A stretch of 64,000 nucleotides of DNA, taken from positions 576,001 to 640,000 of the forward strand of contig CBDAOI010000004.1 in NCBI GenBank assembly GCA_965198005.1, in the 5' to 3' direction. Shown here in pieces: positions 5,828-63,325 of this stretch. Position 1 is the stretch's first letter. Each line of letters begins with the position of its first letter. Below the pieces are notes generated by a model. It saw only the letters and a program-made list of their open reading frames with translations. It was not told the origin of the DNA and did no database searches. Origin of the DNA: Spirochaetia bacterium (GTDB lineage: Bacteria; Spirochaetota; Spirochaetia; SZUA-6; Bin103). A program made the position numbers and the translations under genes.

Positions 5828-6946
5828 GGCGCGGTAGGAACGCCGGTTACCCGGCGCCCCCCGCACAGATCCGGACGTGGTCGTTAAACCATCCGGCTCC
5901 TACCTTCGGTGGTTGACGGCAAATCGCCGGTCCGGCCATGAGTGTACGATTCGGGGTTGGGGCCACAGCTTGATGCTGATCGCCAGCATCCAAGCCCAGG
6001 AGAATCGGTCCTTCTGGGACCTCCGGCGTAGAATCTTTACCCAGATTCCTCGCAGACGCCACACGAATCGGTGCAGGTAGCGGTAGCTGGTGGGTACCGC
6101 GTAGTAGTTGAGCCATCCGCGCAGTACCCGTCCCAGCCAGCGCCCGGTTTCCATCACGTCATCATGCATTCGTCTGCGGAGTTCGATCTTGATCCTCTTC
6201 AGGGTACGATTCATCCGCTTTTCATGTCTCCGCGCGCCTCCTGCGGCCGCCACTTCTTGGTGACCCACAGGTCCAACACGTAGTGCAGATAGATATTCGC
6301 GAGCATCGGTGAAATCACCGACCCTTGCGCTGTACCCCGCCCCGCGTCGATCTGTCGGCCTTCTTCCAGTACCCCAGCGCGCAGCCACTTCTTTATCAGC
6401 CGCAGCACCCGCCGATCTCCAATCCGATGCTCCAGGAATCTGATCAACCAGTCCCGCGAGATCGTGTCGAAGTAGCCGCGAATGTCCGCGTCCAATATCC
6501 AGTTCACTTCGCGCCGTTCGATGGCGTAGGCCAGTGCGTCCAACGCATCGTGTGCCCCTCGCCCCGGTCGAAACCCATAGCTGATCCCGAGAAATTCCTC
6601 CTCATAGATCGGAGTCAGGATCACATCCACCACGGCCTTCCGGACGATCTTGTCCTCCAGCGCGGCCACCCCCAGCGGTCGTGTGCCTCCGTCCGGCTTG
6701 TCGATGTCGACCCGCCGTACCGGGGCCGCTTCGCGCTTCAGCGCGTAATAGGCCACCGCAGCGCTTCCGGCGTCACGTGGTGCAGCAGCGCAGTGAGTTT
6801 CTCCTGCGGTTCTCTCTTTACGAATTGCCGTATCCGCACCCTTGCAGGTGCCAACGCACGGCTCGCGGGGAAACGTGGATTGGCTGCTCCTTCGTTCCGA
6901 GGGACTTTCACCCTCTGTCATATGCCAGTTTGCCTGGCGCTCGCAC
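5828..6946 (-). mobile_element. Group II intron remnant 1 (internally deleted RT/maturase, intact domain V)
   Basis: 5' end GTGCG/GAGCG at 6946-6942; RT blocks RRVDIDKPDGGTRPLG, SYGFRPGR, LDADIRGYFD, QGSVISPMLANIYLH; YADD region missing; domain X LRGWLNYY; DV GAGCCGGATG...CCGGATCTGTGCGGGGGG at 5899-5857 followed by DVI. Confidence 0.9.
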
Positions 6947-7823
6947 CCAGGCGGCCCCCACCACCCCGCAGCCGCGGGTCGAGCAGGTCCCGCACCGCGT
7001 CGCCGAACATGTTCAGGCAGTACACGACAATCGTCAGGCACAGCCCGGGTAAGAGCGCCAGCCGCGGCGCCACCTCCATGTACTTGCGCCCTTCTCTGCT
7101 GAGCATGGCTCCCCAGCTCGGGATCTCCAGTGGCAGACCGAATCCCAGGAAACTCAAGCTGGCCTCGGCAATGATGACGCCCCCGATGTTGATGGAGAAG
7201 ACGATGATGACGACAGGTATGATATTGGGCAGCACATGGCGGATCAGGATGTGGCGCGTGGGCGTGCCCACCGCCTGGGCTGCCAGCAAATAGTCATTCT
7301 CCTTGATGCCCATAACGGCACCCCGGATGACTCTCGAGCCGCCGATGCCCCCGGCGATCCCCAAGACCAGGATGATCTGTGGCAAACCCTGCCCCACCAC
7401 AGACATGATCGTCAACAAGATCAGCAACCCCGGAAAGGCCATCCAGGCATCGACAAAGCGCTGCACCGCCAGGTCCAGTTTCCCGCCAAAGTAGCCGGAC
7501 GGTGCGCCTATCAGCACAGCCACCACGACATTGACCGTAGTCGCTGCCAGGCCGACGAATAGCGAAATTCGGGCACCGTAGATCAGGCGGCTCAGCAGGT
7601 CCCGCCCCAGATGATCGGTGCCCAGGAGATAGCGGCTCGATGAGCTGGTCAGCCGGTCTACCAAATGGACTTCAGCCGGCTCATACGGCGCCACGACACC
7701 GGCGAAAATGCTGACGAAAACCAGTAACAGTACGACCACTCCCCCGAAAGTGCCCAGCGGCTGCTCCTTCACAAGCCTTCGCAGCAACAGGCCCGGGAAA
7801 AACTGTCTCTTTCTCGGGTCCAT
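6918..7823 (-). CDS. Peptide/nickel ABC transporter permease (DppC/OppC-like)
   Basis: LGTDHLGRDLLSRLIYGARISL; EASLSFLGFG; last codons are supplied by intron sequence. Confidence 0.92.
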   Translation of the reverse strand: MDPRKRQFFPGLLLRRLVKEQPLGTFGGVVVLLLVFVSIFAGVVAPYEPAEVHLVDRLTSSSSRYLLGTDHLGRDLLSRLIYGARISLFVGLAATTVNVVVAVLIGAPSGYFGGKLDLAVQRFVDAWMAFPGLLILLTIMSVVGQGLPQIILVLGIAGGIGGSRVIRGAVMGIKENDYLLAAQAVGTPTRHILIRHVLPNIIPVVIIVFSINIGGVIIAEASLSFLGFGLPLEIPSWGAMLSREGRKYMEVAPRLALLPGLCLTIVVYCLNMFGDAVRDLLDPRLRGGGGRLGASARQTGI

Positions 7824-7824
7824 G

Positions 7825-8787
7825 CTATCGATAACGAATCCGGGGATCCAAATAGGAATAAATGATATCGATCAACAGGTTGAACGTGAGCACGGCAGTG
7901 CCAAAAAACAGGTTGATGCCGGAGACTACCGGGTAATCTCTCTCCGTGAGGGCGATCAGCATCAGGCGTCCTAGCCCCGGAAGGTTGAAGATGTTCTCCA
8001 TGATTACGGCGCCGCCTACTATGATAGGTAGCTGCAGGCCTACCAGGGTCACTACCGGAATGAGGGCGTTCTTGACGGCGTGCCTCACCACGACGACACG
8101 CTCCTTGAGACCCTTGGACCAGGCGGTACGGATATAGTCCTGCCGGAGCACTTCCAGCATCATGGTGCGGGTCATACGCATGGTGGCAGCAGACAAGGCC
8201 GTCCCCAGTATCAGGCTGGGAATGATGAAGATGCCGAGATTTCCCAGCGGGTCTTCGACCAGAGGGATATACTCCATCGGCGGCGACCAGCCCCACCAGA
8301 TGGCCGGAAAGATCATCACCATCAGGGCCAGCCAGAAGTTGGGCGTTGCCAAGCCGATGACGGCGAACGAACGCCCCACGTAGTCGGCGGCGGTGTTGCG
8401 GCGCATCGCCGAGTAGATGCCGACCGGCACTGCTATCAGCAACCCCATGACGACGGACAAAACGCCAAGCTCAATAGTCAGCGATAATCTGTCCCAAATA
8501 GCCGCCTCCACCGACCAGTCGCCTAAAAGTGAATTGCCAAGGGTGCCGCGCAGCAGGATACCTCCCATCCAGCGTCCATACTGCACGTACACGGGCTGGT
8601 CCAATCCCAACATCCGCTCGACAGCTTCACGGTCCATACTCGCACCCGCGCCTTGAGCTTCTATCCTACCCGCCATCGCATCTATTACATCACCCGGGAT
8701 GAAACGGACCGACAGGAAGACCAGGATGGTCAAAATCAACAGCGTAGGTATGAGGAGCAATAGTCTCCTGATGACGTAGGCTCTCAT
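7825..8787 (-). CDS. Peptide/nickel ABC transporter permease (DppB/OppB-like)
   Basis: MRAYVIRRLL start; EAA loop QDYIRTAWSKGL; YLDPRIR end. Confidence 0.93.
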   Translation of the reverse strand: MRAYVIRRLLLLIPTLLILTILVFLSVRFIPGDVIDAMAGRIEAQGAGASMDREAVERMLGLDQPVYVQYGRWMGGILLRGTLGNSLLGDWSVEAAIWDRLSLTIELGVLSVVMGLLIAVPVGIYSAMRRNTAADYVGRSFAVIGLATPNFWLALMVMIFPAIWWGWSPPMEYIPLVEDPLGNLGIFIIPSLILGTALSAATMRMTRTMMLEVLRQDYIRTAWSKGLKERVVVVRHAVKNALIPVVTLVGLQLPIIVGGAVIMENIFNLPGLGRLMLIALTERDYPVVSGINLFFGTAVLTFNLLIDIIYSYLDPRIRYR

Positions 8788-8833
8788 TTCGGATGACTGC
8801 TCATCGTTCGACTGGACGCCACAGCTTGTTCGG

Positions 8834-8871
8834 AAAAAAAGTCCCTCTCCCCGCGGGGCGGTGAGAGGGAC
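8834..8871 (-). terminator. Rho-independent terminator between SBP and permease
   Basis: GTCCCTCTC-13nt-GAGAGGGAC followed by T7 on the minus strand. Confidence 0.8.
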
Positions 8872-8889
8872 CAACGCGCTAGATCGTGC

Positions 8890-44717: not shown

Positions 44718-44786
44718 TCGACCGGAGCATAGCCGCCGGTCGCCGCCGCGTCAAGCAGTCGGACCCGGCGTCGCGGGGCGTCTCCT

Positions 44787-45785
44787 TCAGTACATCAGGG
44801 TCTGCGGGTAGTCCTCGTAGGTGGGACAGCCCTCTTCGGCGAAGATGCGGTCGATCTCCGCGCGGTCCGCGGCGCTCAGGCGCCAATCGACGGCGGCGGT
44901 GTTCTCGGCCAGCTCCCGGTCGTTGCGCATGCCGACCAGCGCCACCGTCACCGCCGGGTTGCCCAGCACCCAGGCGATGGCGAGCTGCGCCAGCGACTTG
45001 CCGTAGCGCGCCGCCAGCTCCGCCAGCCGCGCGCCGACGCGCAGCTCCCGCTTGAAGTTGTCGCGCTGGAACAGCGGCAGCCAGAAGGCGGTGTAGCGGT
45101 TGCGCCAGTCACCCTCCTCGAAGGTGTGGTCCGGCCCCAAGGCGCCGGTCAGCAGCCCGAACGCGAGCGTGCCGTACGCCATGAAGCCGATGCTGTGCTC
45201 CCGGCAGTAGGGCAGGATCCGCTTCTGCATGCGCTGATCGAACAGGTGGTAGCCGACCTGGTTGACCGCGACATCGGTGAATTGGCGGCAGTAGTCCAGC
45301 ATCTCGACGTTGAAGTTGGAGACCCCGCCGTAGCGGATCTTGCCGTCCTGCATCAGCTTCTCGAAAGCGCGCATCGGCTCGTCCAGCGGCGTCATGAAGT
45401 CGGGCCAGTGGATCAGCATCAGATCGATGACGTCGGTGCCGAGCCGGCGCAGACAGCCCTCGGTGCGCTCGATGATGTGCTCGTAGCGCGAGTTGCGGCC
45501 GAGAATCCTGCGCTCCTCGTCGTTGAAGAAGAAGCCGGTCTTGGTGACCAGGATCACTTCCTTGCGCCGCTCGCCGAGCGCCTTGCCCAGGATCTCTTCC
45601 GAGTGGAAGGGACCGTAGACCTCGGCGGTGTCGAACAGGTTGATGCCGTGGTCGATCGCGGCGCGTACGGCCCGCGACGCCTCGTCCACGTCGATCGAGC
45701 CGTACATGGTGGTGCTCATCTCCCAGGTGCCGAAGCCGATCGGCGAGGTCATGAGGTCGGTGTTGCCCAGTGGTCGTCGTTCCAT
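44787..45785 (-). CDS. Aldo/keto reductase
   Basis: GFGTW, FDTAEVYG, IDLMLIHWP, GKIRYGGVSNF. Confidence 0.93.
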   Translation of the reverse strand: MERRPLGNTDLMTSPIGFGTWEMSTTMYGSIDVDEASRAVRAAIDHGINLFDTAEVYGPFHSEEILGKALGERRKEVILVTKTGFFFNDEERRILGRNSRYEHIIERTEGCLRRLGTDVIDLMLIHWPDFMTPLDEPMRAFEKLMQDGKIRYGGVSNFNVEMLDYCRQFTDVAVNQVGYHLFDQRMQKRILPYCREHSIGFMAYGTLAFGLLTGALGPDHTFEEGDWRNRYTAFWLPLFQRDNFKRELRVGARLAELAARYGKSLAQLAIAWVLGNPAVTVALVGMRNDRELAENTAAVDWRLSAADRAEIDRIFAEEGCPTYEDYPQTLMY

Positions 45786-45883
45786 GTGCGCGCACCCTAG
45801 CACGCTGCGCGATCAACATCAACACCCCCGGAGGTCGCGCTGGATAACGAGATCGGCATCCTCGTGACCCGCAACCCGCGCGA

Positions 45884-47557
45884 CTATCCCAAGGCCGCGA
45901 TGGAATCGTCTGCATGGAACAGTATCCGGTATCGCCCGCGCGCTACCGGGTACAGAAACGGACTGGAGATGATGTGCTGTCCGGCGTGGCTGCTGGTGAT
46001 GCCTTGTCGCATGAGATTGTCCCGGAGTTCCGCAAACGCCATCGTGGACCCCATCCCCGCTACGGCGCGAACCACCCTGCGGTCGGTGGTAGTCAGCTCG
46101 TCGAACCGGATGTCATGTCGCAGTTGCACGTAGTTTCCATCGATGAGACACCAGTTGGTCTGCCTGATCATCTCCAACAGCACGTGAGCGGGGGGCAATT
46201 CGTCGCCCGTTCTCGTCCGTCGAATGGCCCCGTGGATCTCGTCCAGGTGCAGACGGCCACAGACAGAAAACAACTTCCTGCACTGATAGAGGATATTGTT
46301 GCTGCGTCTCGGCCGCCCGTCCGGGGCATGCCAGTAGACACCGGTATCCCGGTCCAGCCATTGATAATCGGGGTGGGCGTCGATGAGTCGCGTGAGGAGG
46401 GTCGCCATCGCGGACCGCCCCCTGGCGAGTCTTGCCGTCTGGCCGACGATGGAGTGCGCCATCGGCCGCGTCGACGAGAGAATCCGTAGCGCCCTACGGT
46501 ATCTCGCCCGTTCTCCGGTCAAGATCAACACCCGGTTCCCACGGGTCGTCAGCGGAACCAGGGGCCACTCCGTCCCCGCCAGCTCCACGGCGTTCCGTAC
46601 CCCCGAATAGTGGAGCCCGACCCGTGAAACGCCGTGCTTTCTGAGCAGATCGGGCACGTCACCCACGGCGATGGGAGTGGATTCCGTCACGATCCGCAGC
46701 GCTTCCGAAATCCGCCGCGGACAGATCCCGTCGAGGCGGTGGCGTATGGCTCGTTTCCCGGTACTCTCGATCTGCCTGATGCGTTCTCGCGAGACCCGCT
46801 TGCCGAGCCGTGACAATTCAGGGTCCTTGGCGAGTTCCTTGAGCGTGCGAATCCGCTGACCCGACCAGCCCAGGCGAAGCATCATGATGCTGCGCTTGGC
46901 AGGTGCAATGACTTCGGTAACGACGTAGTCGAGTTCCGCCTCCGCGGTAGCCAGCCCCGTACTCAAGGTCTGACGAAAAACCTGTCCCCGCGCAGTAGCG
47001 CACTCGGCTGCGGTACGGGGGTCCATGACCAACGCGAGCCCGTGGTCGTCCAGTGCGTCGATGATCTCCTGCAGAGTCCCACTACCGAGGTTGCGGGTGC
47101 GAACGAGGTCCGGAGCGTTCCACTGTATCAGCTCCCCGACCGTGTGGACGCCCAGGGCTTGCAGGCAATTGGAGGCACGCACACCCAGATTGAGCACGTG
47201 CACTCCGGAGGAAAGAATGGACCGTCCGGTGGTATCCGCCGGTAGCGGTTCCGGCGTACGCGCCACTCGGGTCGAGATCGGGTTCTTGTCCATGCCCAGC
47301 CGGAGCCCATGGTTCGCGAGCGCGCGCGTGATCTCCTGCAGGGTCGTCGCACCGAGGTTCCGCGTGCGGAGCAGATCCTCCGGCCGATACGTAACGAGCT
47401 CCTCAACAGTTCCGACCCCAAGCGCACGCAGGCAGTTGGCCGCACGAACACTGAGCCTGAGGCCCTCGACTGCGGACCTGAGGATGTCGCCATTGGTCGC
47501 TTCGGACACTGCCGTGACTGGCGATGGCGTCCCCGGTTTCTGCATTGTCTCCCACAT
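45884..47557 (-). CDS. Protein with two RNAP alpha-CTD-like domains, a sigma70 region 4 HTH and an unknown C-terminal region
   Basis: LSVRAANCL...RNLG...GLRLGM and LGVRASNCL...RNLG; then TLKELA...VSRERIRQIE. Confidence 0.85.
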   Translation of the reverse strand: MWETMQKPGTPSPVTAVSEATNGDILRSAVEGLRLSVRAANCLRALGVGTVEELVTYRPEDLLRTRNLGATTLQEITRALANHGLRLGMDKNPISTRVARTPEPLPADTTGRSILSSGVHVLNLGVRASNCLQALGVHTVGELIQWNAPDLVRTRNLGSGTLQEIIDALDDHGLALVMDPRTAAECATARGQVFRQTLSTGLATAEAELDYVVTEVIAPAKRSIMMLRLGWSGQRIRTLKELAKDPELSRLGKRVSRERIRQIESTGKRAIRHRLDGICPRRISEALRIVTESTPIAVGDVPDLLRKHGVSRVGLHYSGVRNAVELAGTEWPLVPLTTRGNRVLILTGERARYRRALRILSSTRPMAHSIVGQTARLARGRSAMATLLTRLIDAHPDYQWLDRDTGVYWHAPDGRPRRSNNILYQCRKLFSVCGRLHLDEIHGAIRRTRTGDELPPAHVLLEMIRQTNWCLIDGNYVQLRHDIRFDELTTTDRRVVRAVAGMGSTMAFAELRDNLMRQGITSSHAGQHIISSPFLYPVARGRYRILFHADDSIAALG

Positions 47558-47607
47558 ATGGTATAGTACGTCCTTACGATAGGGTCAAAGGGGCGAACAA
47601 CGAGCGA

Positions 47608-49095
47608 ATGGGCGAGCATATCAGCCACCACTGCGGTCTGTGCGTGACCCACACGCTGCACGACGCCTATTCGTTCATCAAGACGCTGCAACACCGCGGG
47701 CGGGACGCGGTCGGGATTGCCGGCGTCGGCCATGGGCGGATCGACGCGGTGAAGTGGCTGGGCACGGTCGAGACCATGGACTTGGTCGACCTGCACAAGA
47801 TCATGCCCAGCTCCGGGTATCACACCTTCCTCGCGCACGTGCGCTACGCCACCAAGGGCAGCAAGCGGCGGCTGCTGGAAGACGCTCACCCGCACGTGAT
47901 CGGCGGCGCGATGACGGATTACGGCAGTCACGTGATCTACGCCGGCTGCGAGATGGTCGCGGTGCACAACGGTCACGTCGCAGACCACCACCTGCACGGC
48001 GCCGGCAACGCCGCGGCGAACGGCGGCGCCGGGGCAGGCGCGTGCGACACCGAGCGGCTGCTGCACCTCTACCGTGCCATCGGCGAGGCGGAGCTGGTGC
48101 GCCGGCTGCCGGGCGCCTACACCATGGCGATTGCCGACTGCAGCCGCGACGACGTGCTGGTGTTGCGCGACCGCACCGGGATCCGGCCCGGCGTGCTGGG
48201 CATCAAGGACGGCAAGCACGTGGTGGTGTCCGAGGACATCGCCCTGCGCAAGAACGGCGGCGATTTTCTGGAGGACCTCGATCCCGGCGCGGCCTATTAC
48301 CTGGCCGCCGACGGCGCCTACCGCAAGCACCAGCTCACGCCCCCGGCGCCGGCCCACTGCTTCTTCGAGTGGAACTACTTCGCCGACCGCGACTCGATCG
48401 TCGAAGGGCTGTACGTCAAGAAGCTGCGGCGCGCCCTGGGCGAGATGCTGGCCGAGGAACTGGAGCTGGACCGCGTGGACTTCGTCAGCTACTTCCCGCG
48501 CGCGCCCGAGGATGCGGCGCGCGGCCTGGCCGAGCGGGCGAAGGTGCCGTTCCGGCCGCTGTTCTACAAGCTGCGCGGCGAGCGCTCGTTTCAGGGACCG
48601 ACGCCGCATGAGCGCTCGCAGTCGATCTCGCGCAACATCTACCTGATTCCGGGCGTGGTGAACGGCATTCGCGGGCGTTCGGTGCTGGTGGTGGACGACT
48701 CGATCGTGCGCGGCAACAACGTCATGCGGGAGCGCGCGTTGCTGGAGGAAAGCGGCGTCCGCCAAGCGCTGCACGCGCTCTACACGCCGCCGATCGGCAT
48801 CGTCGGCGACGACGGAGTGGCGCGCGGCTGCCTGTTCGGGATCGACATGCCGCCCGACGACACCTTCTTCGCGCGCGGCCGCAACCCGCAACAGATGGCG
48901 GAAGCGGCCGGCGCGCAGGTGGTGTTTCTGACCAAGTCGGGGATGCTCAAGGTGTACCAGCGACTGGGCATCTCCCCGGACCGCCTCTGCACCTACTGCA
49001 TCGGCGGTCCGTACCCATATGCCAGGGCGGGCTTCCCCGACCCCGCGACGCGTGCGGCGGGCCGCCGGGCGCAGCCCCAACCGCACGCAATTTAG
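47608..49095 (+). CDS. purF: Amidophosphoribosyltransferase (Fe-S, propeptide type), divergent
   Basis: Propeptide then CG; QHRG, HVRYAT, HNG, CFFE, VVDDSIVRG, CLFGID, CTYC. Confidence 0.88.
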   Translation: MGEHISHHCGLCVTHTLHDAYSFIKTLQHRGRDAVGIAGVGHGRIDAVKWLGTVETMDLVDLHKIMPSSGYHTFLAHVRYATKGSKRRLLEDAHPHVIGGAMTDYGSHVIYAGCEMVAVHNGHVADHHLHGAGNAAANGGAGAGACDTERLLHLYRAIGEAELVRRLPGAYTMAIADCSRDDVLVLRDRTGIRPGVLGIKDGKHVVVSEDIALRKNGGDFLEDLDPGAAYYLAADGAYRKHQLTPPAPAHCFFEWNYFADRDSIVEGLYVKKLRRALGEMLAEELELDRVDFVSYFPRAPEDAARGLAERAKVPFRPLFYKLRGERSFQGPTPHERSQSISRNIYLIPGVVNGIRGRSVLVVDDSIVRGNNVMRERALLEESGVRQALHALYTPPIGIVGDDGVARGCLFGIDMPPDDTFFARGRNPQQMAEAAGAQVVFLTKSGMLKVYQRLGISPDRLCTYCIGGPYPYARAGFPDPATRAAGRRAQPQPHAI

Positions 49096-60407: not shown

Positions 60408-60463
60408 GCTGAGAGGTAATACGCCGCTGTCCGTGACACGAGTTTGTCGCTATCCTTGCCGCT

Positions 60464-63325
60464 ATGAAGCTATGCGTCACTCGCCCGGTTCGAGTACTCC
60501 TGCTGGTGCTCGCGACCGCCGCCAGCGTGACGCCACTGGGGTGGGCGCAGGCACCGCAGACCGACCTGCCGTTCGATCCCAGCGTGCTCCGTGGAACGCT
60601 CAGCAACGGGCTGGTGTACTACGTCCGGGACAACCCGGATCCACGCGGCCGCGCGCATCTCCTGTTGGTGGTACGGGCGGGCTCGGCACTGGAGGAGGAG
60701 CACGAGCGCGGCCTCGCGCACTTCGTTGAGCACATGGCCGTGCACGGGACTGCCCGGTTTTCGGGCAAGGAGCTCACCGATTTCCTCAAGTTGAGCGCGT
60801 CTGAATCCGATCCCGACCTCAATACCAGATTCGATGAAACCGTGTTCCGGATCGAGATACCCACCGACGACGCCGCGGTAGTCAAGACTGCGTTCGAGAT
60901 ACTCAGTGACTGGGCCTACGGGATCAGCTTCGACCCTACTGCGCTGGAGCGGGAACGCCGCGTCGTTCTGCGCGAGTTGCGGACGAATCACGGGGTTGTC
61001 CCACGAATCTTTGCGCGGCACGTACCGAAGCTTTTCGGGGCCTCTCGCTACGCGGAAAGACTGCCGATGGGCCAACGACGGGTGCTCGCTACGGCATCCG
61101 CCGCGCACCTGCGAGCATTCTACGAACGCTGGTACCGCCCCGATCTGATGGCGGTAATCGCCGTAGGCGACTTTGACCCGGATCAAATCGCCGACACTAT
61201 CCGACACCAGTTCGCGCCGCCCCCGGAGGGAGCAGCCCAACCGGCACGCGCACGCCGTCCGGAGCCACCAACCAGCCGGCCTCGGTTCACCGTTCCCAGC
61301 CATGCCGCTCCCCGGGTCGGCATAGCAATGGACTCGGACATGGGGGCTACCTGGGTAACTCTTTACCGCAAACAGCCGGCTGAAACCGGCCAGGACGTCG
61401 CTGCATTCCGCCGTCGATTCATGGTCGACGTGCTGGTCCAGCGGATGCTCGCCGGCCGACTGTCCAAGCGTACCCAGACGGCCGACCCGCCCTATCTCTC
61501 CGTGTTGGTTGGCCGGTTATCCCTCGTGGCGGATACGGCTGCCTGGACGGTCTTCGCTCAGGTGGATCAGGATGGGGTTGGGCGCGGTGTGGAGACTCTG
61601 ATCGAGGAGATTCAACACGTGCTGCGCCATGGCTTCACCCCCGCTGAGCTGGAGCGCGAGAAGGCGGTGCGCCTGCGTGAGGTGGAGGATATCGAGCAAG
61701 GACGGGTCCCGTTGCCTTCGCGCCTATTCGCGGAGGAGTACGTGCGCCACTTCCTGTATGCCGAACCGGTGCCGGGGATTACCGCCGAGTACGAACTGCA
61801 CCGGCGCCTGCTGCCGGAGATTTCGCTGGCGGAGGTGAACGGGGTGCCCGCGGCGTGGCGGGATCTGCGGGACACCGTATTGTTCGTGTTGGGGCCCGAG
61901 GGTGTGGCGTCCGGCCCCGAAGCGGAGCAGGCGCTGCTGGCCAAGCTGACCGGTGCCGGTGCCCCGGAGGTGCCGAGTGAGAGCCGCGCGCGCGATGTGC
62001 CACTGTTGGTGCCGCGGCCCGAGCCGGGGAGCATCACCGCCGAACGCCGCATCGAAGCAATCGACGCGGTACGGTGGACCCTCTCCAACGGGGTGACGGT
62101 CATCGCCAAACAGACCGAATTCCGGAGTGACGAGGTGCTGGTGGCGGCGAGTAGCCCCGGCGGCGCCTCAGTCGTTGCGGACGCCGACTACATTCCCGCG
62201 CTCACTGCCGCCGAAATCGTTCGGGGCAGCGGCGCCGGACCGTACGACTGGGAGGCACTTGAGGAACTCCTGTCCGGCAACACCGCTGAGGTGAGGCCTT
62301 ACATTCGCGATTTGCATGAGGGGTTCACCGGCAGTTCCGCACCGTGGGATCTGGAAGCGCTGTTTCAACTCATCACCCTGTATGCCACCGAACCACGGTT
62401 CGATCCCGCCTACTATATGCTCTACTTGCTGGCCCTGCACAACCGTTGCAATATCCCGCCCACGTCCCAGATTATTGCGCTGCTTCACGACGACACGCTC
62501 CATAGTGCGACGACCGGGAATCACTTCCGCAGGACGACGCTCTCGTGTGATCGGCTGCAGCGGCTCAATCTGGAGCGCTCCGCCGCCGTCTATGCGGACC
62601 GATTCCGAGATTTCAGTGATTTCACCTTCGTGGTCGTCGGTGCGTTTGACTGGGACCAGCTCCGCACGCTGACCACTACCTATTTGGCCACGCTGCCCGC
62701 CGCCGGACGCGTGGAGCAATGGCGCGACGCGGGGATTGCCGCCCCCGCGGGCGTGGTCGATCGCGTGCTCCATCAGCAGACCGATGCAGGCAGCGTCACA
62801 CGCCTTGTGTTCGCCTGGGAGATGGCGGGGAGCTGGATGGAGACAGCGACCCTCCTGGTACTCAGCGAGATGCTTGAGGTTCGTCTCCAGGAGCGGCTGC
62901 AGAACGAATTGGGAGCGGCCTCTTGGGTCTACGCTCGTTCCACGGTGACGTCGCTGCTTCCTGATCCCCAGTACTGGGTGTTTGTCACGCTGGGTAGTGA
63001 GCCCCATCGCGCCGACGAGATGCTGGAGGAGGTATTTGGAGCCATAGACTGGCTGATAGCCGGGAGTGAGCAGAGCGATCTGGAGCAGGCCAAGGAGTAC
63101 TTGCGTGAGTTGAATTCGGGATCAAGGCTAACCAACGACTTCTGGCTCAACCAGATCGACGTGGTGGTGAAGCGCGGCGAGCCCTTCAGCGCGATTACCG
63201 GCATGGATCAACTGCTTGAAGCGATCACGCTGGAGCAGGTCACGGCGGCGGCGCGAAGCTACCTACGCCGCGATCGCTATGTGCGCGTGGTGCTGCTACC
63301 GGAGGCCGCCACCGAGGCCGAATAA
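60464..63325 (+). CDS. M16 family zinc peptidase (PqqL-like)
   Basis: Signal peptide; GTLSNGLVYY, GLAHFVEHM (HxxEH), FYERWYRPDLM. Confidence 0.92.
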   Translation: MKLCVTRPVRVLLLVLATAASVTPLGWAQAPQTDLPFDPSVLRGTLSNGLVYYVRDNPDPRGRAHLLLVVRAGSALEEEHERGLAHFVEHMAVHGTARFSGKELTDFLKLSASESDPDLNTRFDETVFRIEIPTDDAAVVKTAFEILSDWAYGISFDPTALERERRVVLRELRTNHGVVPRIFARHVPKLFGASRYAERLPMGQRRVLATASAAHLRAFYERWYRPDLMAVIAVGDFDPDQIADTIRHQFAPPPEGAAQPARARRPEPPTSRPRFTVPSHAAPRVGIAMDSDMGATWVTLYRKQPAETGQDVAAFRRRFMVDVLVQRMLAGRLSKRTQTADPPYLSVLVGRLSLVADTAAWTVFAQVDQDGVGRGVETLIEEIQHVLRHGFTPAELEREKAVRLREVEDIEQGRVPLPSRLFAEEYVRHFLYAEPVPGITAEYELHRRLLPEISLAEVNGVPAAWRDLRDTVLFVLGPEGVASGPEAEQALLAKLTGAGAPEVPSESRARDVPLLVPRPEPGSITAERRIEAIDAVRWTLSNGVTVIAKQTEFRSDEVLVAASSPGGASVVADADYIPALTAAEIVRGSGAGPYDWEALEELLSGNTAEVRPYIRDLHEGFTGSSAPWDLEALFQLITLYATEPRFDPAYYMLYLLALHNRCNIPPTSQIIALLHDDTLHSATTGNHFRRTTLSCDRLQRLNLERSAAVYADRFRDFSDFTFVVVGAFDWDQLRTLTTTYLATLPAAGRVEQWRDAGIAAPAGVVDRVLHQQTDAGSVTRLVFAWEMAGSWMETATLLVLSEMLEVRLQERLQNELGAASWVYARSTVTSLLPDPQYWVFVTLGSEPHRADEMLEEVFGAIDWLIAGSEQSDLEQAKEYLRELNSGSRLTNDFWLNQIDVVVKRGEPFSAITGMDQLLEAITLEQVTAAARSYLRRDRYVRVVLLPEAATEAE

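Follow-up and report, generated by a model that had tools for sequence, protein, structure and literature searches.

Gene product and start codon

We analysed a stretch of 64,000 nucleotides (nt; hereafter, the window) from a Spirochaetia bacterium (GenBank assembly GCA_965198005.1, contig CBDAOI010000004.1, positions 576,001 to 640,000), in which a gene on the reverse strand encodes an unusual combination of RNA polymerase (RNAP)-related domains. The gene, referred to below as the target, is an intact open reading frame (ORF) of 557 amino acids (aa) at 45884-47557 (-; P0001). Its product contains two copies of the C-terminal domain (CTD) of the RNAP α subunit, a helix-turn-helix (HTH) of the σ70 region 4 type and, as judged by a structural model, an array of winged-helix (WH) domains. 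Searches with Pfam and NCBIfam revealed no α N-terminal domain (NTD) and neither σ region 2 nor σ region 3 in P0001, and no enzyme domain, kinase or nuclease family was recognized in it by Pfam. The same domain composition (two α-CTDs and σ region 4, without α-NTD and σ regions 2-3) had been proposed in a first-pass annotation of the window, and Pfam, NCBIfam and PDB alignments all agree with it. The protein is strongly basic (net charge +21, isoelectric point 10.3). We therefore correct the annotation: the gene product is not an RNA polymerase subunit, and its sequence identifies it as a putative acquired DNA-binding protein.

The gene call supplied with the assembly (P0002) is 553 aa long. 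The second ATG of the frame (M5, 47545), which is preceded by a GGGAG motif, is the likely start codon and matches the 553-aa product. A candidate promoter, TTGACC-17 nt-TATACC (47560-47588, -), can be read by eye just 5′ of the first ATG; a consensus promoter scanner made no call upstream of the gene, at this candidate included. A terminator scan returned a single terminator-like site of chance-level quality, located inside the gene.

The α-CTD repeats and the σ70 region-4 HTH

The Pfam model RNA_pol_A_CTD (PF03118) matches the target in two stretches (E 1.7e-33; 114.6 bits against a cut-off of 23.8), and NCBIfam rpoA models also match it twice, in each case with the C-terminal part of the model only (65-108 bits against cut-offs of 228-523). 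Repeat 1 (aa 23-90; 47288-47491, -), supported by Pfam, NCBIfam, PDB and family alignments, carries R38, N41, C42 and G69 at the positions of α residues 265, 268, 269 and 296. Repeat 2 (aa 112-180; 47018-47224, -), supported by Pfam and a PDB alignment, carries R127, N130, C131 and G158 at the same positions and G160 at the position of α K298. Residues 248-316 of E. coli α (10ma_G, 329 aa) align with target residues 110-178 without a gap, so the earlier statement that both copies keep the equivalents of R265, N268 and G296 holds; solved α-CTD chains match the target with E-values down to 2e-10. The two repeats share 41 of 66 residues with each other and are 44% and 35% identical to the CTD of the host’s own RpoA. 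In the family alignment, repeat 1 of the target is the counterpart of repeat 2 in relatives with three repeats. The copies are tethered by linkers at aa 91-111 and 181-204.

The DNA-binding determinant of α consists of R265, N268, C269, G296, K298 and S299. In the target, this determinant is incomplete: the R, N, C and G residues are kept in both repeats, and the equivalents of K298 and S299 are replaced, the latter by threonine.

The repeats are followed by a σ70 region-4-like HTH (aa 205-281; 46715-46945, -), recognized with Pfam, NCBIfam, PDB and family-level comparisons, which has a net charge of +8 and a 7-residue insertion in the turn. Its recognition helix is RERIRQIE (aa 257-264; 46766-46789, -). 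In region 4 of primary σ factors, the R-E-R-x-R-Q residues read the −35 promoter hexamer. Taken alone, the target gives a weak signal with the Pfam model PF04545 (E 0.012; 15.5 bits against a cut-off of 24.1), and RpoD-type NCBIfam models match it over their last 60-70 positions only. A phmmer search of the PDB with aa 195-290 retrieved SigA1 (9dvs_G, E 8e-4), in which RERIRQIE is identical. The first-pass annotation had thus correctly placed the HTH, its recognition helix and the turn insertion; the length of the insertion, given there as about 8 residues, is 7 in this alignment.

At the level of the protein family described below, the σ signal is much clearer. Three relatives pass the Pfam Sigma70_r4 cut-off of 24.1 bits (39.0, 37.8 and 24.9 bits), 41 of 66 full-length members scanned with Pfam match this model at E ≤ 1e-3, and a family profile retrieves region 4 of SigA/RpoD from the PDB at ~1e-18 and RpoA CTDs at ~1e-22. 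In an alignment of 110 family sequences from very different sources, the residues of the R-E-R-x-R-Q motif (R63, E64, R65, R67 and Q68, counted from the start of the aa 195-557 core) are each at least 90% conserved. The σ region 4 identity, as read from family sequences, is solid.

The C-terminal part is a predicted winged-helix array

An AlphaFold2 model of the core (aa 195-557), built from the same alignment of 110 family sequences, has a mean predicted local distance difference test score (pLDDT) of 94.1 and a predicted template modelling score (pTM) of 0.88. The top Foldseek rows for this model are tandem WH proteins (SelB WH1-4, STK19, UFL1, RPC62, the FokI recognition domain and SspB), none of them at E ≤ 1e-3. 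An exhaustive comparison with VIA-align placed single WH domains on model residues 155-220, 226-290 and 293-363, with middling Z-scores of up to 7.8; despite these values, the WH assignment is supported by the three-fold repetition and by the agreeing DSSP pattern.

The second winged helix (aa 349-414, model residues 155-220; 46316-46513, -) matches, for example, Z-alpha domains and SelB with Z ~7. The third (aa 420-484, model residues 226-290; 46106-46300, -) matches the cullin WHB domain (Z 7.8) and 2od5 (Z 7.6), and the fourth (aa 487-557, model residues 293-363; 45887-46099, -), which reaches the end of the protein, matches the WH domains of ORC1 (Z 7.8) and MCM8 (Z 7.6). In the model, the third and fourth domains follow the canonical H-b-H-H-b-b order, and neither has an additional helix. 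Upstream of these lies a probable first winged helix (aa 282-346, model residues 87-152; 46520-46714, -), which DSSP analysis of the model resolves into three helices and a hairpin; it is placed with less certainty since no row of the fold searches covers model residues 87-152. The second winged helix has a net charge of +5 and, together with the σ region 4 unit, is the most positive part of the protein. Thus, of the two possibilities raised earlier for aa 280-557, a winged HTH or a nuclease, the model, the fold searches and DSSP all point to the first: the C-terminal ~280 aa are predicted to form a rigid array of three to four WH domains, with no nuclease.

A family that mostly ends in a B3-type barrel

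Relatives were sought by searching 1.84 billion representative proteins with aa 195-557. The search retrieved 655 clusters at E ≤ 1e-3, 180 at E ≤ 1e-10 and 24 at E ≤ 1e-30. Among the matches listed, most cover nearly all 363 core residues, in proteins 196-1173 aa long. The α-CTD (PF03118) is present in 55 of the 66 full-length members scanned with Pfam. Apart from helix-hairpin-helix (HhH) families, the only other families detected in these members were HA and PASTA, in one member each, and none had an enzyme domain.

The closest relatives (46-68% identity) carry three or four α-CTD repeats and ~110 extra C-terminal residues. The last 86 residues of one family protein, P0007, were folded together with 65 relatives, and the resulting model had a pLDDT of 96.2. 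VIA-align matched this tail to the plant B3 domains of VRN1 (Z 9.1), FUS3 (8.1), ARF1 (7.9) and RAV1 (6.6) and to the restriction enzymes LlaJI.R1 (7.7), NgoAVII (5.6), EcoRII-N (5.5) and BfiI-C (5.3), over 80-85 of the 86 residues, with unrelated rows at Z ≤ 3.9; the Foldseek probability against plant B3-DNA complexes was 1.00. By this model, the C-terminal domain of most relatives is a B3-type DNA-binding pseudobarrel. Local hidden Markov models (HMMs) found the barrel in 140 and missed it in 37 of 177 retrieved WH-array proteins, a set that includes the window’s own two entries, fragments and near-duplicates; the local α-CTD HMM used alongside is less sensitive than that of Pfam. The full-length layout predicted from these sequences is zero to four α-CTDs, σ region 4, approximately four winged helices and a B3 barrel, every module being of a DNA- or protein-binding type.

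When aligned with these relatives, the target starts in the linker that follows their first repeat and stops just before the linker to the B3 barrel. It keeps all 22 of the core positions that are at least 90% conserved. Barrel-less relatives also exist: P0004 (641 aa, on a 64.8-kb contig) and P0018. Judging by its sequence, the target is probably a shortened, stand-alone family member that is still functional. Fused forms were not found at E ≤ 1e-5 among proteins of 976-2785 aa, which is weak evidence.

Two sets of fragmentary or composite sequences were seen in the family. P0003 (636 aa, on a 2,810-bp metagenome contig) matches P0004 almost letter for letter in its N-terminal part and the target exactly in its C-terminal part; it is either a true recombinant or a chimera that arose when two co-occurring strains were assembled. 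P0016 (338 aa; three α-CTDs and σ region 4) and P0017 (346 aa; WH array and B3 barrel), each on a 12,138-bp contig, jointly span a full-length member, as if a single gene had been broken into two ORFs.

Earlier mentions of this architecture exist. Aravind and Iyer reportedly described it in 2012 (Cell Cycle 11:119), in a computational paper on bacterial proteins that combine σ region 4 with HARE-HTH, and NCBI product names of some plasmid-borne members already record it. The target is a new, truncated member of a family on which literature searches found no experimental work. New here are the identity of the B3 barrel, the near-invariance of the σ region 4 reading residues, the loss of the α 297/298 lysines (see below), the map of the insertion and the plasmid contexts.

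An acquired gene at a variable junction

The G+C content at third codon positions (GC3) of the target is 0.75, compared to 0.87-0.94 in six flanking genes. None of 40 relatives (10 from the same genus, 13 from the sister genus and 17 from the same order) was found to carry the core, and a search of all 91 other species representatives in the order was equally negative. In a sample of 400 other genomes of the phylum the core was likewise not found, a single match being limited to the σ region 4 part. The less GC3-biased codon usage remarked upon at first sight is thus confirmed, and the suggestion of acquisition is upheld by the codon usage together with the absence from all 91 other genomes of the order; these findings do not fit a vertically inherited gene with a constant housekeeping context.

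In the same-genus genomes G001 and G007, a glycosyltransferase-4 (GT4) gene directly adjoins a glutamine-amidotransferase (GATase) gene. The homology of both genomes to the window ends at 44755 and restarts at 47608. Between these points the window holds a specific segment of 2,852 bp (44756-47607) with an aldo-keto reductase (AKR) gene and the target, which replaces 119-129 bp of intergenic DNA. The AKR gene (44787-45803, -) has a host-like GC3 of 0.94 and 83-84% identical orthologs, at a distant locus, in five of five same-genus genomes; it is a native gene that was relocated or duplicated. The orthologs lie megabases from the GATase locus, and G001 holds three copies. By sequence comparison, only the target, out of the whole 2,852-bp segment, is foreign to the genus.

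A different insert of ~9 kb, with a G+C content of up to 0.79, occupies the GT4-GATase junction in another same-genus genome, G005 (L110, G005:C3, 892-9583). Its ORFs encode proteins of 1015 and 1303 aa, the larger with PKD, SWM-repeat and Big_9 domains. The junction is, on comparison of these genomes, a hot spot for variable cargo. We considered whether it is a defence island and dropped this idea, as the insert of G005 encodes a PKD/SWM-repeat surface protein.

Ten neighbouring genes in the window were assigned by Pfam to DUF350, an ion channel, GT4, AKR, GATase, a solute-binding protein, LeuA, a thioredoxin-reductase-like protein, SOD and an M16 peptidase, and are by these assignments housekeeping genes. 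The amidotransferase ORF (47524-49095, +) aligns with its orthologs only from residues 25-29 on; translation probably begins at the ATG at 47608, ~50 bp from the divergently oriented target gene. Elsewhere in the window, two open frames at 6313-8889 and 60437-63325 have a GC3 of 0.72-0.76 compared to 0.85-0.94 in most genes and are possibly further acquisitions; the latter encodes an M16 peptidase pair-domain protein of 953 aa.

Distribution of the family and plasmid contexts

A tblastn search of 72,556 plasmids with diverse family members returned approximately ten records, of which seven distinct ones were inspected. The proteins encoded by all seven match the core HMM (full-sequence E 8e-48 to 2e-64), and some have XRE-type N-termini in place of α-CTDs. 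The member on a Diaphorobacter plasmid has ParB, RepL and H-NS genes as neighbours, and that on a Variovorax plasmid lies next to a replication initiator gene. A Piscinibacter plasmid member is accompanied by DUF932, toprim and DUF1845 genes, a Rhodoferax plasmid member lies within a long co-directional array of small hypothetical genes, and a Burkholderia plasmid member is flanked by a DNA polymerase III α gene on one side and by ligase and Ku genes on the other. Two members on Pseudomonas megaplasmids are located between dnaQ-dnaB-dnaE and dnaG. These last two (pMPPla107, L114, 10121-11071, and the plasmid of Pseudomonas sp. FeN3W, L116, 9968-11041) are proteins of 316-357 aa with σ region 4 and the WH array only; they occupy the same slot, dnaE / erpA-dnaG, in megaplasmids of ~0.9-1 Mb, a conserved position in the replisome cluster. 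Overall, the contexts of the seven plasmid members are of the replication, partition, leading-region-like or repair kind.

No annotated BREX, Dnd or Ssp gene was present within ~10 kb in any of the eight contexts (the window and seven plasmids), with the reservation that PLSDB gene tables are incomplete. The plasmid contexts speak against a role confined to defence. Members of the family travel on mobile DNA.

Searches of phage records (tblastn) and of viral contigs (single-protein and alignment scans) returned no relative, as did a single-protein scan of metagenome contigs. Scans of genome and metagenome contigs with the σ region 4 motif returned ordinary σ-factor genes, and a WH-region HMM matched none of the loci L003-L104. 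None of 301 Cyanobacteriota genomes matched a WH-only query, no family member was found in five named genomes, and none of 401 Actinomycetota genomes matched the family profile at E ≤ 1e-30, the last result being weak since two candidates per genome were scored.

A near-identical gene is present in DNA sequencing runs of three studies and also in four metatranscriptome runs from another study. Each of these four RNA libraries yields short contigs that map within 46331-47535 with 0-1 mismatches, at depths similar to those of flanking genes, which is compatible with transcription. The interval 45810-46250 is covered by no contig in any of the four RNA runs; contigs cannot show absence. A joint 44336>45609 was seen in three RNA runs; its sides are just 20 letters long, and its probable source is another organism.

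Proposed function and alternatives

We propose that the target is a free-standing, enzyme-free, multi-point DNA-binding protein, possibly a regulator, derived from a mobile element, and assign to this reading of the sequence a probability of about one half. The σ region 4 recognition helix would bind in the major groove and recognize a −35-like hexamer there, and the WH array (plus the B3 barrel where present) would lengthen the contact along adjacent DNA. The two tethered α-CTD modules may add flanking DNA contacts or contacts with other proteins, their own DNA binding being uncertain. A protein that occupies promoter-like DNA without the rest of the polymerase would most probably be a regulator by which such sites are occluded or marked. 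A promoter-occluding regulator had been offered as an alternative in the first-pass annotation, and this idea is compatible with everything seen. Since the family occurs in plasmid backbones and its occurrence here is patchy and insertion-like, a role in the biology of mobile DNA is suggested.

Several observations weigh against this proposal. The lysines at α 297/298, which matter for UP-element binding, are lost in both repeats (A70-T71 in repeat 1 and S159-G160 in repeat 2; K-K in the host RpoA), and repeat 2 is acidic (net charge −3); UP-element-type binding by the α-CTD copies is doubtful because of these two features. The target has neither the first α-CTD repeat of its closest relatives nor the B3 barrel and could be impaired. 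The RNA-library contigs could stem from DNA carry-over. The sample of contexts is small, and its plasmid members are distant relatives from Proteobacteria. Finally, no experimental study and no DNA-binding experiment was found in the literature for any family member.

A bolder version of the proposal, which we consider rather unlikely, is that the family provides a mobile-element promoter reader in trans. Such a protein would recognize, independently of the polymerase, the upstream half of housekeeping promoters (the −35 hexamer and its flanks) and silence, mark or pre-load promoter DNA on plasmids or in new hosts; the window copy would then be a short version that a symbiont has domesticated. 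If true, a promoter reader in trans would add a means of managing transcription by mobile DNA that has not been described before. Knowing whether these proteins bind −35-like DNA, whether they serve plasmids, defence or both, and what the α-CTDs contact would make sense of a gene that recurs on plasmids and in acquired islands, and might uncover a new kind of control over promoter access.

Another reading, unlikely on the whole yet a real possibility, is that the protein belongs to an anti-phage system of the BREX, Pgl or phosphorothioate type as its DNA-scanning or sensing subunit, comparable to BrxA, SspB/DUF4007 or the C-terminal half of PglW, and that it is an orphan here, parted from its partner genes. 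PglW models do match aa 117-251 of the target (NCBIfam E 2.5e-11, PADLOC E 1.8e-10), and PADLOC detects PglW in 27 (best E 4.6e-18) and MzaA in 24 of the 66 scanned members. In a 2026 comparative study (PMC12839542), PglW is described as an α-CTD-like domain followed by three winged HTH modules, and BrxA and DUF4007/SspB as scanning units made of an HTH and two winged HTHs, so that a grammar of HTH and winged HTH modules is shared. B3-type barrels, moreover, also serve as DNA-recognition domains of restriction enzymes. However, the PglW match is limited to the α-CTD and the first helices of the HTH (NCBIfam model positions 798-927 of 1391; 42 bits against a cut-off of 990), and no PADLOC model other than PglW and MzaA was matched by the 66 members. 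None of the eight contexts has the BREX, Dnd or Ssp genes sought near it, and in the absence of partner genes the window copy could not serve as such a subunit.

It is quite unlikely that the gene is a remnant in decay, a piece of foreign DNA that lost both its ends as it integrated and persists as an open frame without function. Such a history would account for the positions at which the ORF starts and stops relative to the domains of its relatives, for the distance of just 50 bp between its 5′ end and the edge of the window-specific segment, and for the lack of a promoter call. It sits poorly with the intact frame of 553-557 codons and with the retention of all 22 conserved core residues. 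Furthermore, barrel-less forms occur among relatives too, a near-identical gene recurs in three DNA studies, and contigs are present in four of four RNA libraries.

It is very unlikely that the protein works as an RNAP-associated factor. Region 4 of σ binds the β-flap; if the σ region 4 unit of the target did so, or if its α-CTD copies bound activators or σ, the protein would compete with σ or tether the polymerase to sites chosen by the winged helices. The clear homology to region 4 of primary σ factors and the maintenance of α-CTD modules in 55 of 66 members are in line with this possibility, but the most conserved residues are those that read DNA.

Most improbable is the decoy or sensor favoured by the first-pass annotation, which would display α-CTD and σ region 4 surfaces to phage factors that hijack RNAP (Alt/ModA-like or AsiA-like): the gene is indeed horizontally acquired, with an R265 equivalent in both repeats and a σ region 4 helix nearly identical to that of primary σ, but the four winged helices and the relatives’ B3 barrel are superfluous for a decoy and left unexplained by it, the α-CTD surface is an imperfect copy without the 297/298 lysines, the protein has no effector domain, no effector or defence gene adjoins it in the window or its relatives on the seven plasmids, whose members sit in backbone regions, and no relatives were found in phage records or viral contigs.

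Comparison with known systems

The C-terminal half of PglW, from type 2 BREX and Pgl systems, resembles the target in that an α-CTD-like domain is directly followed by HTH and winged-helix modules, an architecture described in PMC12839542. Unlike PglW, the target lacks the NERD nuclease, kinase and iSTAND parts, stands alone, has more α-CTD and WH repeats and has no BREX genes nearby. With BrxA and SspB (DUF4007), as presented in PMC12839542, the target shares an N-terminal HTH followed by winged helices and the lack of an enzyme domain, whereas its family has more WH units, α-CTDs and a B3 domain. The similarity of SspB (6juf) to the core model is weak (Foldseek E 0.12), and no BrxA or SspB match was obtained with PADLOC in the 66 members.

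As to the HARE-HTH, Pfam PF05066 matches neither P0001 (E ≤ 1) nor the 66 members (E ≤ 1e-3); among look-alike clusters in the atlas, the family set Sigma70_r4 plus HARE-HTH was found in 22 of 30 matches. The B3 pseudobarrel of plant B3 proteins and of EcoRII-N, BfiI-C, NgoAVII and LlaJI.R1 has the fold predicted for the C-terminal domain of most relatives, at 4-18% identity, but is absent from the window protein.

Compared with RpoA, the target has two clear copies of the CTD, with the equivalents of R265, N268, C269 and G296 kept; it differs by the missing α-NTD, the missing equivalents of K297 and K298 and the acidic second repeat. Compared with primary σ70, its region 4 helix RERIRQIE is identical to that of SigA1 (9dvs), but regions 1-3 are missing, the turn holds a 7-residue insertion, the unit is fused to winged helices and, alone, it scores below the Pfam cut-off. 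The family re-uses, in one enzyme-free chain, both modules that bacterial RNA polymerase employs to read promoters in their upstream half.

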